Positions 38,859 to 51,268 of a stretch of 64,000 bases of DNA are shown one piece after another. The translations under genes and the position numbers were made by a program. Each line of letters opens with the position of its first letter. Position 1 is the first letter of the stretch. The stretch is from NCBI GenBank assembly GCA_030683105.1, contig JAUXMZ010000037.1:767-64766 (forward strand). The letters are read 5' to 3'. The notes under the pieces were generated by a model. It made no database searches. It was given only the letters and a program-made list of their open reading frames with translations, and was not told the origin of the DNA. Origin of the DNA: Burkholderiales bacterium (GTDB taxonomy: Bacteria; Pseudomonadota; Gammaproteobacteria; Burkholderiales; SG8-41).

Positions 38859-39368
38859 CTATCCTTCTCGTTTTTTTTCGGAGCGGAGGATGGCCATGCG
38901 CTTCGACACGGGTCGCGCTTCTCTGAGCAGGGTGTCCCAATCTTCGGGCGGATGGCCAGAATCGAGCATTTTGCGGAACACGCGATAGGCATCGTTGCTG
39001 CTCTCGTAGGCTCGTTTGGTGTCTTCGTCATTGACCCATGCGTAGACGATAATGCGTTGCGCCGCGTGGAACCGGAAAAACAATCGGTACTGCTGATAGA
39101 ACCTGGCGCGAAACCAGTGCTTGCGGTCGGCGCCCAGAGTATCGCCCTGACGGTATTCCGGACGCGTGGGATCTGCGGGGATGACTTCAAGCGCGAGCCT
39201 GGCGATCGCCGCCAGGCGCTTGGTGCTGTTTTTCTGCTTGTTGGTCTTGGGGTCCCTGGCCTTGAGGGCTTCAACCCTGGAGATCAGTTCTTCGACCTGG
39301 TGGAGAAACAAAGGATGGGCAAACAGGCTCCAGCCATTAACAATCAACGGGGCCTCCGGCAGACTCAT
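38859..39368 (-). CDS. yhaV: YhaV-family type II toxin (ribonuclease)
   Basis: 169 aa. ...NGWSLFAHPLFLHQVEELI...YRQGDTLGADRKHWFRARFYQQYRLFFRFHAAQRIIVYAWVNDEDTKRAY.... Confidence 0.8.
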   Translation of the reverse strand: MSLPEAPLIVNGWSLFAHPLFLHQVEELISRVEALKARDPKTNKQKNSTKRLAAIARLALEVIPADPTRPEYRQGDTLGADRKHWFRARFYQQYRLFFRFHAAQRIIVYAWVNDEDTKRAYESSNDAYRVFRKMLDSGHPPEDWDTLLREARPVSKRMAILRSEKKREG

Positions 39369-39688
39369 TCGTCTGCGGGATTCAGCGCGGCCTCGAGATC
39401 GACCTTGACCCCCTTGGTCAGAGCGCGCATGCGCTTGGCCAAATCGGTATCGATGGCGCGCAAATGCTGCGGATGTTCAGCGATATTCCGGGCCAGGAAA
39501 TCCAGAAAAGAGCCCAGAACCGGGTCGTCACTCTGTTCGGCACGCTGCAAAATCACGGAGCCGTTGCTCTGCACGACATAGCGAATGCGGTCGCGCTTGC
39601 CGAGCTTGAGCGCGCGACGCACGGCATCCGGCACGGTCGTTTGATAGCGATCGGTCAGCGTGGATTCGAGTTCAAAGGTAGCAGACAT
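39365..39688 (-). CDS. prlF: PrlF/SohA-type (AbrB-fold) antitoxin
   Basis: ORF trimmed to MSATFELESTLTDRYQTTVPDAVRRALKLGKRDRIRYVVQSNGSVIL.... An AGGAA lies 7 nt upstream, and the gene has a 4-nt overlap with yhaV. Confidence 0.8.
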   Translation of the reverse strand: MSATFELESTLTDRYQTTVPDAVRRALKLGKRDRIRYVVQSNGSVILQRAEQSDDPVLGSFLDFLARNIAEHPQHLRAIDTDLAKRMRALTKGVKVDLEAALNPADE

Positions 39689-39718
39689 GACCATTTCCTT
39701 TCTGAACAGATACAGAAG

Positions 39719-39744
39719 CATGGTAATGCACACGCATTACCATG
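39719..39744 (-). promoter_or_regulatory. Perfect palindrome upstream of prlF (candidate operator)
   Basis: CATGGTAATGC-ACAC-GCATTACCATG has 11-bp perfect arms and lies 31 nt upstream of the prlF start. Confidence 0.5.
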
Positions 39745-39780
39745 TCAATGTCGCTCAAAGGCCGGGGCGGGCTTACCCCA

Positions 39781-39960
39781 GTGATTAGTGATTGGTGATT
39801 AGTGATTGGCACCCGCCGGGTATTTGCTTTGCGGCATGGTTCGCACCCTCCGGGTATTTGCTTTGCGGCATGGTTTGTACCCGTCTAGCGCACCCCTCGA
39901 GGGGGTATTGAAAAGAAGGTATTAAAGTGAATGGGTCGTGGGTCGTGAGTCGTTGTTCGT
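39781..39960. repeat. Composite repeat island (heptamers, tandem P boxes, stem-loop modules)
   Basis: P boxes lie at 39812-39838 and 39846-39872, a 34-nt pitch. GTACCCGTCTAGCGCACCCCTCGAGGGGGTATTGAAAAGAAGGTATT and CGTGGGT CGTGAGT CGTTGTT units are also present. Confidence 0.9.
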
Positions 39961-40344
39961 CTATTGCTGTTCTTGTAAGCGCATTAGCAGTAGCTTTTGC
40001 TCCGGCAGGAAATGACTGAGACGGTCGTACACCGCTAATGCGTGCTTGGCATTGTATGTATGAGACATCCGATTCCTCGCCTCGAGCATTTCCAGCCAAG
40101 TCTCCTCGTCACTAATCCAGCCGAGGCTGAATGCTTGCTTTAAGCATGCCTTGGGAGATGCACATTCCGGCAAGCCTTGCGACAACGATGCGAGTTTGAT
40201 CGATTTCCATGCGAGTTCAAAGGAAAATTCAAAGTACTGGATGCATCCGGCCTTGATCAAATCGCTGTCTGCAGGCACCGATAAGGCGCTCTCCAGTTGT
40301 GACAGGGCTGTTTCATAATCCGCGAGGATCCAGTTCTCACTCAT
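39961..40344 (-). CDS. Nucleotidyltransferase substrate-binding protein, HI0074 family (HEPN-type toxin partner)
   Basis: MSENWILADYETALSQLESAL...IQYFEFSFELAWKSIK...ARNRMSHTYN.... It has an 8-nt overlap with the MNT gene. Confidence 0.75.
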   Translation of the reverse strand: MSENWILADYETALSQLESALSVPADSDLIKAGCIQYFEFSFELAWKSIKLASLSQGLPECASPKACLKQAFSLGWISDEETWLEMLEARNRMSHTYNAKHALAVYDRLSHFLPEQKLLLMRLQEQQ

Positions 40345-40651
40345 ATAAAACCTCAATGTGCTCCATTGCCCGTTCTCTGAATTCGGGATTGACTCGATTT
40401 AGATCCACCCAATCAATTTTATAAAGAGTGGGCAAATCGTCAAACGTGTCCTCTATCGCAAAAAATGTTTTCAAAGGCAGCGGTTCGTCACCATACGCGC
40501 CTACGTCGAAATCGGAGCGTGGGCGCGCTTTCCCGGTCGCTCGCGATCCAAACAGAAAAACCCGATGCCCTTTTAACTCGGTCTTATATCGGAGCAATTG
40601 CTGCTTGAGCATAGCCTTGATTTGTACGGCTCGTTGGTCGTTGGTCGGCAT
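40337..40651 (-). CDS. Minimal nucleotidyltransferase (MNT) domain protein
   Basis: 104 aa. ...VFLFGSRATGKARPRSDFDVGAY.... The first ~7 codons (MPTNDQR) are written in heptamer units. An alternative start is at MLKQQL. Confidence 0.75.
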   Translation of the reverse strand: MPTNDQRAVQIKAMLKQQLLRYKTELKGHRVFLFGSRATGKARPRSDFDVGAYGDEPLPLKTFFAIEDTFDDLPTLYKIDWVDLNRVNPEFRERAMEHIEVLYE

Positions 40652-40700
40652 TCGTTGTTCGTTGTTCGTTGTTCGTTGTTCGTGTTAAGGGCGGTGATTA
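40632..40700. repeat. Heptamer tract (CGTTGGT x2, TCGTTGT x4) plus K box
   Basis: It overlaps the MNT start codon at 40651. Confidence 0.9.
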
Positions 40701-49690: not shown

Positions 49691-49763
49691 GGAATCCTTT
49701 CCCGCCGCGAAGCAAGTCCCCGGAGGGGGCGACAAAGCGTCGCCAAGGGATTGGCGACCTACC

Positions 49764-50150
49764 CTACCAGATCCTCTTCACGCCGTATTTCGCAAACAAG
49801 GGGTCCGAGGTAATGACCGGCAATTTCTCTTCAAGCGCCTGGGCAACAAGCAACCGGTCAAAAGGGTCGCGATGGTGAAAGGCTAAAGCGGCGACCCGCG
49901 CCACATGACGAAAATCGATTTGCAGTTGACTGAATCCATTGGCCGCGAGTTGTTCCGGAATAAAGCGCTCGATAGCGTCGGGGAGTTTAAGTTTTCCCAG
50001 GCTGAGCTTGATGGCCATCTCCCAGGAACTGACGAGACTGAGCAGGCATTGGTTTTCCGGATCGGCAATCACTGCCCGTGCCTTGCGCGACAACGCCGGC
50101 GCATCCTCGACCCACCATAGAAAAACATGGGTGTCGAGCAGAAGTCGCAC
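49764..50150 (-). CDS. vapC: PIN-domain toxin (VapC/FitB-like)
   Basis: 128 aa. MRLLLDTHVFLWWVEDAPALS...SSWEMAIKLSLGKL...HHRDPFDRLLVAQALEEKLPVITSD.... Confidence 0.8.
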   Translation of the reverse strand: MRLLLDTHVFLWWVEDAPALSRKARAVIADPENQCLLSLVSSWEMAIKLSLGKLKLPDAIERFIPEQLAANGFSQLQIDFRHVARVAALAFHHRDPFDRLLVAQALEEKLPVITSDPLFAKYGVKRIW

Positions 50151-50374
50151 TACATGTATTCCTTGAAATCTTTCGGCGTGGCGTCGAAATCAGGCGCCAT
50201 CCAGATCCGGCCTTTTGCCGAACCCGGTTTGCGCGATTGTTGGGGCGGGGTCAGCGCGACCAGCTTGACAACAGCTTTATTGTCCTTGGCAATGATGACC
50301 TCTTCCCCCAGCATGGCTTTTTGCACCAGCTCCGAGAAATGCGCCTTGGCTTCAGCGATATTGAATTTGGCCAT
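50150..50374 (-). CDS. phd: Phd/YefM-family antitoxin
   Basis: ORF trimmed to MAKFNIAEAKAHFSELVQKAMLGEEVIIAKDNKAVVKLVAL.... Confidence 0.75.
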   Translation of the reverse strand: MAKFNIAEAKAHFSELVQKAMLGEEVIIAKDNKAVVKLVALTPPQQSRKPGSAKGRIWMAPDFDATPKDFKEYM

Positions 50375-50436
50375 GAGACCGCCACCGAACGTATAGGTAT
50401 ATGACCATCCTACATGACCAACATGCAAATATCAAA

Positions 50437-50640
50437 CTCGTGGTACGTTGCTCGTGGTTCGTGGCTAGAAGCGGTGATTAGTGATTAGTGATTGGTGATT
50501 CAACAGCCGTGACTCGTGGTACGTGGTACGTGGCTCGTGGCCGTTCACGAATCACGAATCACGAATCACGTACCACGTACCACGTATCACGAATCACGAA
50601 TCATTCTTCACAATACCCGCTTGACGGGTACGAATCACGG
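50437..50640. repeat. Repeat island forming a long heptamer palindrome plus a reverse stem-loop module
   Basis: ...CGTGGTACGTGGTACGTGGCTCGTGG-CCGTT-CACGAATCACGAATCACGAATCACGTACCACGTACCACG.... It is followed by CATTCTTCACAATACCCGCTTGACGGGTACGAATCACGG. Confidence 0.9.
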
Positions 50641-50651
50641 ATTTTGAAGAG

Positions 50652-50996
50652 TTAGTGTATGCCCAATAAGGCCCTGATTTTTCCGAGGGTCTCGGCTAAC
50701 TCGTCGTCCGACACTCTGCCTTTGTGCCGCGCTTTGCGTGCCCGCCAATCGAGATTCTTAAGCTGATCGGACAGGATTGCGCCGCTCACGTTGGCGTTTC
50801 CTTGAATGACTACCTCGAAAGGGTAGTGCTTGACCTGGTTCGTGATCGGACAGCACACCATCATGCTGGTCTTGGCGTTGTAGGCGGCGGGTGAGAGCAC
50901 CAGCGCCGGACGGGTCCCGGACTGCTCATGGCCTGCCTGCGGGTCAAATTCCAGCCAAACCACATCTCCCGGCTTGGGCACATACTGCCCCGCCAT
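50652..50996 (-). CDS. mazF: MazF/PemK-family toxin
   Basis: 114 aa. ...YVPKPGDVVWLEFDPQAGHEQSGTRPALVLSPAAYNAKTSMMVCCPITNQVK.... Confidence 0.85.
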   Translation of the reverse strand: MAGQYVPKPGDVVWLEFDPQAGHEQSGTRPALVLSPAAYNAKTSMMVCCPITNQVKHYPFEVVIQGNANVSGAILSDQLKNLDWRARKARHKGRVSDDELAETLGKIRALLGIH

Positions 50997-51238
50997 TACC
51001 AGACCTCGTTCCCTTCTGGCTTGCCAAAGTCCACGGAGGAGTGGCTGTTTTCCGTGCTGATGCCTGCGACCAGCTGCCCGATGTCGTATTCCTTTTTATT
51101 GATCGGCTCGATAACCACCCGGCCATCTTCGGCGCGAATATCGACAGGCTGCTCGAGCGCCAACTTGGCGGTCTCCATTACCGCTGCAGGAATCCTCACT
51201 GCCGCGCTGTTACCCCATTTCTTGACGATGACTTCCAC
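50996..51238 (-). CDS. mazE: MazE (AbrB/SpoVT-type) antitoxin
   Basis: GTG at 51238 gives VEVIVKKWGNSAAVRIPAAVMETAKLALEQPVDIRAEDGRVVIEP.... Confidence 0.75.
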   Translation of the reverse strand: MEVIVKKWGNSAAVRIPAAVMETAKLALEQPVDIRAEDGRVVIEPINKKEYDIGQLVAGISTENSHSSVDFGKPEGNEVW

Positions 51239-51268
51239 GATACAAACCCCTCTCAGCAATTCATGGAA

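Follow-up and report, generated by a model that had tools for sequence, protein, structure and literature searches.

Toxin–antitoxin (TA) modules of unrelated families may lie together in chromosomal 'islands', documented for example in Nitrosomonas europaea and Mycobacterium tuberculosis, for which preferential incorporation has been proposed (Makarova, Wolf and Koonin 2009, PMC2701414). The elongation factor RfaH excludes NusG and thereby Rho, and TA systems have been mentioned among the neighbours of rfaH in one line, with no analysis (PMC7593976). Arrays of tandem heptanucleotides are known as the short tandemly repeated repetitive (STRR) sequences of cyanobacteria and as the TAACTGA repeats of Beggiatoaceae, cyanobacteria and Bacteroidetes (PMC4679880). 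The locus described here is a variant that combines these three known features. It lies in a 64,000-nucleotide stretch of DNA from a bacterium of the order Burkholderiales (positions 767 to 64,766 of contig JAUXMZ010000037.1, assembly GCA_030683105.1), called the window below, whose first letter is position 1 of all coordinates. Twelve co-oriented type II TA-type modules, eight apparently intact and four decayed, occupy 12.4 kb of the window between the gene manC and the operon polarity suppressor (ops) element that follows an rfaH-like gene. A preliminary description, made by reading the sequence, listed these modules and proposed that the repeat islands between them are the recombination substrate by which they accumulate. 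Pfam searches bore out the twelve modules, two partners being assigned by eye. On balance, we favour the explanation that the array is a TA island formed at an insertion hot spot shared across the lineage, within an RfaH/ops operon, with the repeats forming a separate layer.

Similar to the described TA islands (PMC2701414), the window contains type II pairs of different families in a statistically unusual, closely spaced series. The pairs consist of adjacent, co-oriented small genes with toxin and antitoxin domains, by which they can be assigned to putative type II TA modules, and the excess of such pairs at close spacing identifies the array as a probable TA island in the sense of that work. 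Protein identity between modules does not exceed 47%, so that an origin by tandem duplication was rejected; the sole exception is a pair of non-TA genes. Unlike in the described islands, the insertions have a precisely defined place, namely the leader and the spacers within an RfaH/ops polysaccharide operon; relatives have other TA families at this site, and the modules are all co-oriented with the operon and separated by a lattice of repeats. All thirteen modules at 38.8–53.7 kb share one orientation, and all real genes at 7.1–56.8 kb are on the minus strand.

As in other RfaH/ops (JUMPstart) operons (PMC7593976), a gene for an RfaH-like paralogue next to a helix-turn-helix regulator gene is followed by a perfect 12-nt ops element and by an operon longer than 40 kb. 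The product of the gene at 51672–52184 is a putative NusG paralogue of the RfaH type, as indicated by its Pfam NusG NGN domain (E = 2e-18). Many of its 1525 homologues were named RfaH by their source, and one that is 96% identical (P0001) carries this name at NCBI. The first gene of the pair encodes a MarR-type winged-helix regulator (52190–52504, Pfam HTH_24/MarR), and marR adjoins rfaH also in the related loci L005, L014, L015, L057, L074, L077, L078 and L083–L087. The ops element GGCGGTAGCGTG (51532–51543, minus strand) is located 128 nt 3' of the rfaH stop codon, in the leader of the long operon, and matches the 12-nt sequence GGCGGTAGnnTG exactly; it is the single copy in the window, where 0.06 matches are expected by chance. 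The order of transcription is polysaccharide export gene (54034–56790, Pfam Poly_export/SLBB), phd-PIN, marR, rfaH, ops, nine modules together with two IVP genes, and the wzz-like chain-length determinant gene (41718–42929, Pfam Wzz and GNVR; 74 relatives found). The mazF1 module, MNT-HEPN, prlF-yhaV, manC (37257–38729, Pfam) and roughly 30 kb of genes for sugar biosynthesis, the majority in a low-GC stretch, follow 3' of wzz. From ops at 51.5 kb to 7.1 kb, all genes are on a single strand. The window differs from the described RfaH/ops operons in the approximately 9 kb of TA modules from ops to wzz and the further 2.8 kb between wzz and manC.

Comparison with related loci identifies the ops-proximal leader as a recurrent insertion site for many TA families, independent of repeats. 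The comparison set contained 15 betaproteobacterial loci including the window; it is small, the loci were picked by homology, and the contigs of several relatives are short. TA modules are present 3' of rfaH/ops in seven of these loci: the window, L005 (VapB/PIN), L015 (ParD and HicB/HicA), L014 (YafQ/RelB), L087 (Phd/PIN), L078 (MazEF) and L076 (MazEF and VapBC). They are co-oriented with the operon in six of the seven, the module of L014 being on the opposite strand. The hicB-hicA pair of L015 is intact and has 75% DNA identity to the hic module of the window. No 7-nt arrays were found at the ops-downstream TA position of L005, L014, L015, L087 or L078, and the single 7-nt array of L078 is located elsewhere, in the 5' end of wzz. 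The annotated 16-kb flanks of L078 and L083–L087 contain hardly any TA genes away from the ops site. The backbone of the relatives is compact and has the order marR-rfaH-ops-export gene-wzz or wzz-marR-rfaH-ops-manC, with the export gene immediately ahead of wzz in most of them. The ops motif lies just 3' of rfaH in L004, L005, L014, L015, L040, L057 and L074 and is visible also in the sequences of L076, L077 and L078, so that its position 3' of rfaH is kept in at least nine relatives; in L009, it is located upstream of the export gene. The MNT/HEPN genes of L043 lie just 3' of wzz.

The content of the array evidently differs between close relatives, and, as the preliminary description had supposed, the locus is better described as a variable array of discrete modules than as an old, fixed arrangement. 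In L076 (RfaH 96% identical, backbone coding DNA 96.5%), rfaH, ops and mazEF are followed directly by vapB2-PIN2 (47931–48634 in the window). The modules phd-PIN4 (49764–50428) and vapB3-PIN3 (48707–49338), which belong to about 1.85 kb of the window (48674–50523), have no counterpart in L076. The junction of this indel is in repeat-island sequence that resembles a mosaic of other islands of the window. Where arrays occupy orthologous positions, their units differ between the window and L076, whereas the flanking unique sequence is conserved. The vapB2-PIN2 module is 99.5% identical in the two loci, with 3 mismatches in 636 nt compared with 38 in 1101 nt of the backbone (Fisher p = 2e-5). L077 (RfaH 81%) has an island and wzz after ops and zero TA modules between ops and wzz. 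Its module of the vapB2-PIN2 type precedes marR, adjoins a ParE gene and has no islands around it; it is 91% identical to that of the window, compared with 82–83% for rfaH and wzz and 89.5% for marR. The vapB2-PIN2 module thus occupies three different positions in three related genomes. In five contexts (L076, L077 and the unrelated loci L080–L082), the homologous segment is bounded by the −35 box on one side and the stop codon on the other; three of these contexts are island-free. Because the homology has these same limits throughout, the unit that moves is the minimal operon, from promoter to stop codon.

The module closest to ops has a different history. L078 (RfaH 72%) has the order rfaH-ops-mazEF-wzz, and mazEF at the same position is 95–98% identical to that of the window at the nucleotide level in L076 and 84–87% in L078. 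Since mazEF is shared with L078, with a conserved mazE promoter, it is old at the ops site, and by comparison with the relatives it is the oldest module of the array. A polarity of insertion, in which each new module enters next to ops, was considered and rejected, because this ops-proximal module is the oldest and those that L076 lacks are more distant from ops.

The modules are mutually unrelated and have promoter-like and operator-candidate sites of their own. The one nearest to ops is mazE-mazF (mazEF2, 50652–51259; Pfam MazE_antitoxin and PemK_toxin), with a promoter-like TTGACA-17-TAGACT upstream of mazE2 (51297–51269). It is followed by phd-PIN4 (PhdYeFM and PIN), vapB3-PIN3 (MazE/AbrB-like and PIN), vapB2-PIN2 (PIN of the tRNA-fMet VapC family, with its own promoter-like site) and vapB1-PIN1 (47022–47716; PIN), in which the 87-aa upstream partner is a weak DUF6364 match. 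The next module (46010–46784) has a full-length MqsA_antitoxin gene (46010–46474) and a truncated mqsR (46530–46784), whose MqsR_toxin match spans positions 1–64 of the 95 in the profile, so that about one third of the length is missing. A hicB-like gene (45823–46020) is accompanied by a C-terminal remnant of hicA (45648–45775; HicA_toxin PF07927, E = 3.7e-5; module 45648–46020), and an Unstab_antitox antitoxin gene (45216–45458; PF09720) by a frameshifted ParE/RelE-like remnant (44904–45219; module 44904–45458). The remnant has no Pfam match and was identified by eye from two reading frames. Two tandem four-helix-bundle genes (44092–44818), which had been counted among the TA cassettes, belong to the 23S_rRNA_IVP family (PF05635) and are not TA genes; they share 72% protein identity, and 77% DNA identity over a 300-nt direct repeat. 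The last module before wzz (43002–43999) consists of a DUF433 gene (43733–43999) and a C-terminally truncated DUF5615 gene (43002–43199), and an intact paralogous pair is present at 4594–5162. The gap of 533 bp within this module is not a repeat island, as had been assumed, but an insertion similar to a miniature inverted-repeat transposable element (MITE; 43187–43724) that is about 538 bp long. Its terminal inverted repeats of 24 nt, GAGTCCCTAACATAGTGAAACACG, are 96% complementary. The MITE-like element is GC-rich and contains a second, internal inverted pair of 53 nt.

Three modules lie between wzz and manC. The gene mazF1 (40899–41252; PemK_toxin) is preceded by one for a 90-aa antitoxin candidate (41206–41478; module 40899–41478), which has no Pfam match and is similar to ribbon-helix-helix (RHH) proteins by eye only. 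MNT-HEPN (39961–40651) matches Polbeta/NTP_transf_2 and NTase_sub_bind, and prlF-yhaV (38859–39733) matches PrlF_antitoxin and Toxin_YhaV, with a promoter-like site at 39748–39720 and a palindrome at 39719–39744 associated with prlF. On the other side of rfaH, phd-PIN (phd2, 53018–53745; PhdYeFM, PIN weak) is located between the export gene and marR. Both partners score above the Pfam curated cut-off in prlF-yhaV, MNT-HEPN, mazEF2, phd-PIN4, vapB3-PIN3 and mqsRA, and the toxin alone does so in the mazF1, PIN1 and PIN2 modules. The family names given previously are backed by Pfam for all members except two, the antitoxin candidate at 41206–41478 and the ParE remnant. Sigma-70-like sites matching 9–10 of 12 positions are present upstream of prlF, vapB2, vapB3, phd, mazE2 and phd2, but promoter-like sites overall number 12, which is not above chance (9.5 expected). 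Operator-candidate palindromes are located at 39719–39744, near 41515 (at the mazF1 module) and near 49367.

Repetitive extragenic palindromic (REP) sequences and bacterial interspersed mosaic elements (BIMEs) of enterobacteria and pseudomonads are short, hairpin-forming elements that cluster in the spacers between co-transcribed genes and are associated with a RAYT transposase. Rho-dependent attenuation of transcription has been reported for BIMEs. The spacers of the window contain islands of several kinds of repeats, among them a hairpin element ACCCGTCGAGCGGGT (ACCCG-TCGAG-CGGGT; 8 copies, 0.13 expected) that is likewise clustered in extragenic spacers. Unlike REP and BIME elements, its copies are mostly in one orientation and do not alternate, and tandem heptamers dominate the islands. 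The window contains 22 arrays of at least three 7-nt copies, with the units GTGATTR, TCGTTGT and TTCGTGG, which read YAATCAC, ACAACGA and CCACGAR on the sense strand. They are interleaved with a 34-nt unit, whose 23-mer core has 12 exact copies (0 expected), and a 19-nt unit, GTGTTAAGGGCGGTGATT (11 copies, 0.06 expected). The heptamer arrays are tandem, multicopy, mostly intergenic and lineage-specific, by which they can be classed as STRR-like. They share with the STRR and TAACTGA arrays (PMC4679880) also the strand bias and the occasional occurrence in frame within open reading frames (ORFs). The window arrays differ from them in that the units are not TAACTGA, and in that a single island may combine several units with the hairpin, 19-nt and 34-nt elements. 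They also belong to a betaproteobacterium and co-localise strongly with TA modules.

The island at 49339–49763, for example, contains three 34-nt units, a hairpin element, a (TTCGTGG)x6.7 array and a 19-nt unit. Comparable islands are located at 38730–38858, 39770–39960, 40631–40700, 42930–43052, 44030–44091, 44413–44452 and 44819–44935 on the manC side, at 45490–45630, 46893–46990, 47770–47930, 48640–48690 and 50433–50640 in the middle of the array, and at 52520–52570, 52880–53015 and 53835–54031 beyond rfaH. Nearly every spacer of the array contains an island, but the earlier statement that every module is bounded by islands is too strong, since the hicBA and mqsRA modules abut without one. 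Among spacers of 100 bp or more, 15 of the 17 beside TA-type genes contain repeat motifs, compared with 2 of the 12 others (Fisher p = 3e-4), a comparison that is confounded because the repeat-free spacers sit in a low-GC block and a high-GC flank. Beyond the array, repeats are found at 1.1, 3.7, 6.7 and 52.5–54.0 kb and within three coding regions, those of manC, a GDP-mannose dehydratase and wzz.

In manC, a full island of heptamers, the hairpin ATTCTTTTCAATACCCGCTCGACGGGTAC and further heptamers is translated in frame (38165–38269). It encodes about 32 residues (VVNHDPRSTNNDQRSILFNTRSTGTNHEPP) in place of a loop of about 10 residues in L074 (3049–3087); manC is 92–94% identical to that of L074 at the nucleotide level on either side of the island, and the protein alignment shows the replaced loop. 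The islands thus behave as insertable DNA and are more than filler of spacers. Heptamer arrays are translated in frame also at 35379–35406, in the GDP-mannose dehydratase-like gene (35160–36296), and at 42882–42912, in the 5' end of wzz. An array within the first 20 codons of wzz is common to the window, L077 (2452–2490) and L078 (11573–11602), and its heptamer unit in L078 is unlike that of the other two. Among 86 related loci, arrays of the kind seen in the window occur in L001, L074, L076, L077 and L078 only, and isolated 7-nt arrays also in L052, L070 and L087. L074 has heptamer units of its own, CTCAGCA and CACGATC. Exact searches of JGI metagenomes with the 23-mer of the 34-nt unit and with a 24-mer of the mazE promoter gave zero matches, and an Rfam scan of the islands and the leader gave no match at E <= 0.1. 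A further repeat family (CCCTCTACCGTCGAGCGGCACCGAGGTCCCCCTGRGCACGGGGGGAGAGG) is present just 3' of the rfaH stop codon (51575–51671) and upstream of marR (52594–52700), with a looser copy between MNT and mazF1 (40700–40890) and one in L076 (573–642); the L076 copy, 3' of rfaH, is a 93% match to the window copy upstream of marR. The contigs of the closest relatives (L001, L076, L077 and L079, and those with the RfaH homologues P0001–P0007) are 0.9–3.4 kb long and end in repeat islands, which indicates that the repeats fragment short-read assemblies and that TA arrays of this kind are under-represented in collections of metagenome-assembled genomes (MAGs).

Based on the arrangement of the window and of its relatives, a mechanism of accumulation can be proposed. 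Autonomous type II TA operons would have inserted repeatedly and independently into the 5'-terminal, untranslated spacers of the operon, where some of them decayed. RNA polymerase loaded with RfaH at ops would exclude NusG and resist Rho. Kilobases of terminator-free, co-oriented foreign DNA would then leave wzz, manC and the later genes unsilenced. Addiction by post-segregational killing may slow the loss of modules, which would lead to their pile-up and to the decay of redundant toxins. The second layer would consist of lineage-specific, fast-evolving repeats similar to STRR and BIME sequences, which colonise spacers and tolerant coding loops. Short homologies within the islands may allow the deletion or transfer of whole modules, as between the window and L076, and the initial capture would need no islands. 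The repeat system probably helps to reshuffle the modules in this way, and the islands are a plausible substrate for it. In most arrays, the C-rich strand is the sense strand; the spacers have C and G fractions of 0.29 and 0.225, with an excess of up to +0.37 in 60-nt windows, and no intrinsic terminators were found on the sense strand of the islands. In this composition, the islands resemble potential Rho-loading sites, which could make read-through dependent on RfaH.

Several points weigh against this explanation. We infer the step in which RfaH confers tolerance to the inserted DNA, and eight of the 15 loci bear no TA module at the site. The co-localisation of islands and modules (15/17 versus 2/12 spacers) fits a causal link between the two better than it fits independent layers, albeit in a confounded comparison. 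In all three comparisons made, divergence is somewhat lower in TA genes than in backbone genes, which may be due to gene flow or to stronger constraint. Support from independent contigs covers some of the array junctions only (L001, L079 and L076), and the TA density and repeat distribution are those of the 64-kb window, not genome-wide values.

Alternatively, although we regard this as unlikely, an integron-like device for capture and shuffling of cassettes may use the islands as its specific recombination sites. Such a device could operate by RecA-dependent exchange between directional repeats or by a recombinase or nuclease specific for the arrays or hairpins. Circles, once excised, would enter again at any island in fixed orientation. 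It would account for the islands that bound almost all modules, for their enrichment in TA-adjacent spacers, and for the single orientation of all modules and nearly all arrays. The island-mosaic sequence at the indel junction between the window and L076, the lower divergence of the vapBC cassette relative to the backbone, and the behaviour of the islands as mobile DNA in manC are also consistent with it, and the identical 78-nt repeat blocks at 39801–39878 and 47841–47918 are long enough for homologous recombination. However, relatives free of arrays accumulate TA modules at the same site, the vapBC and parE modules of L077 have no flanking islands, and vapBC is delimited in every context by its promoter and stop codon, never by island sequence. 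The make-up of the islands is highly heterogeneous, without a conserved core site. No integrase or recombinase domain was found among the scanned ORFs of the window, which lie outside the low-GC polysaccharide block at 7–37 kb, and the sole candidate is an IS3-type fragment. The suggestion of the preliminary description that the islands are a recombination substrate is thus retained for reshuffling, on account of the L076 junction, the uniform orientation and the co-localisation, whereas the evidence from array-free relatives, L077 and the vapBC limits speaks against their role in the capture of modules.

Less probable still, and in our view rather doubtful, is a dual role in which the islands are both an attachment lattice, integrase-independent or served by another recombinase, and, through their C-rich, G-poor RNA on the sense strand, Rho-loading insulators that only RfaH-modified polymerase can cross. 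The leader just 3' of ops (51311–51531, minus strand) contains inverted heptamer arrays at 51486–51531 and 51311–51385 around an AT-rich unique segment. The G-rich array directly 3' of ops is complementary to the C-rich array 100–190 nt downstream, and the two are predicted to form a long stem. The predicted folding energy of the leader RNA is −67.5 kcal/mol (z = −4.35), and that of the L076 counterpart has z = −6.7. The same layout is found in L076 (711–955) and L077 (2262–2490), where the 3' arm of L077 lies within the first wzz codons. The units of the leader are CGTGGYT/CCACGAG in L076 compared with GTGATTR/YAATCAC in the window and L077, so both arms have changed together. If the islands had the dual role, these covarying inverted arrays would form part of the control. 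The inverted-array layout is present in two more islands, at 50481–50611 and 53877–54031.

It is improbable that the array is maintained by a selected function, either because TA modules stabilise an acquired, costly polysaccharide cluster or because they form an abortive-infection island at a phage-receptor locus. The block of glycosyltransferase and sugar genes at 11–34 kb has 43–51% GC, save for a GC-rich stretch at 21–23 kb, compared with 55–66% in the flanks. This contrast indicates that the exopolysaccharide (EPS) block is probably acquired DNA, which would suit the first of the two functions. The spacers of the block carry no repeat islands, and together with the low GC content this suggests that the block was acquired more recently and that the repeat system has yet to colonise it. 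A TA module persists at the site in relatives with RfaH identity down to 64–72%, and the mazEF promoter is conserved in L078. TA cassettes are known to have a stabilising effect on chromosomal integron arrays (PMC11023631). Among ten array proteins submitted to PADLOC, MNT alone was matched, to the candidate defence family PDC-S09; recognised anti-phage systems are thereby set aside for the nine other proteins tested. A selected function is further opposed by the decay of four of the twelve modules, by the families that differ from genome to genome, and by the half of the relatives that bear no TA module. Stabilisation needs one module, and the presence of twelve would be left unexplained.

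Exchange of whole polysaccharide clusters at marR-rfaH-ops as a recombination anchor, as in JUMPstart/ops O-antigen loci, with TA modules as hitch-hikers, is very unlikely to explain the array. The genes 3' of ops do vary widely among the relatives, and include export gene-wzz, manC, a UDP-glucose dehydrogenase gene and a glycosyltransferase gene. In L074, which has the order wzz-marR-rfaH-ops-manC, manC has 92–94% DNA identity to the window, whereas marR, rfaH and wzz have only 49–68% protein identity; this contrast and the different gene order point to mosaic ancestry. Cluster exchange explains neither the module-level indels on the same backbone, as between the window and L076, nor the promoter-to-stop unit, nor the presence of modules in the wzz–manC interval and ahead of marR.

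Sedentary chromosomal integron arrays (PMC4889954, PMC11023631) resemble the window in their co-oriented compact cassettes, TA pairs with their own promoters, content that varies between relatives and repeats at cassette boundaries. The window differs from them in that no attC site, no attI, no IntI among the scanned ORFs and no conserved boundary site were found, and in that the array lies within a functional operon. Its boundaries are heterogeneous direct 7-nt arrays, with no conserved palindrome and with inverted arrays in three islands only, instead of imperfect palindromes. Although the layout is that of co-oriented small cassettes, and the repeats break short-read assemblies into contigs as short as those of the closest relatives, both an integron or cluster of attC sites lacking an integrase (CALIN) and an assembly chimera that joined unrelated TA contigs through shared repeats are highly improbable, given zero attC core pairs (RYYYAAC...GTTRRRY, 55–145 nt apart, both strands of 38.7–54.1 kb), the lack of an integrase in the ORF scans, the promoter-like sites of the cassettes, and junctions confirmed by other contigs. 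On the attC scan of 38.7–54.1 kb and the scanned ORFs, the integron was rejected, in agreement with the preliminary description, which had seen neither feature. L001 and L079, which are 100% identical to the window, confirm the marR-rfaH junction and the order vapB3-PIN3-vapB2-PIN2, respectively, and the rfaH-mazEF junction is present also in the separate assembly of L076. Origin of the cassettes from plasmids or mobile elements was rejected as well, since a megablast search of 72,556 plasmids with a 15-kb query yielded just two matches of about 100 nt (79–80%), both to vapBC genes.

The movement and clustering of chromosomal TA modules are long-standing questions, for which the window and its relatives offer a defined recurrent site with a conserved marR-rfaH-ops...wzz backbone. 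The number of modules at the site ranges from 0 to at least 9 per relative, and one module is found in three positions with sharp promoter-to-stop limits. The locus is therefore an unusually clean natural system for studying how TA modules move, in which the mechanism of insertion and loss, the sheltering of foreign DNA by RfaH antitermination and the role of heptanucleotide arrays become testable. Even if none of the proposed mechanisms is true, the locus is a clean TA island and a warning that repeats fragment metagenome assemblies.

Further TA loci are present towards the ends of the window. Those at 2950–3599 (ParE/RHH), 4594–5162 (DUF433/DUF5615) and 63601–63987 (PIN) were confirmed by Pfam, and a gene pair at 3911–4555 has no Pfam match. 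The earlier estimate of about 19 TA loci in 64 kb is thus close to the approximately 17–19 counted here, most of them by Pfam. Matches to Wzz come from Sterolibacterium, Rhodocyclaceae and Burkholderiales MAGs, and the best match to a GTDB representative is 68% identical in a full-length alignment. The IS3-family transposase fragment (C-terminal, rve_2; 6417–6671) is located at the distal end of the polysaccharide operon, where it is flanked by island repeats.

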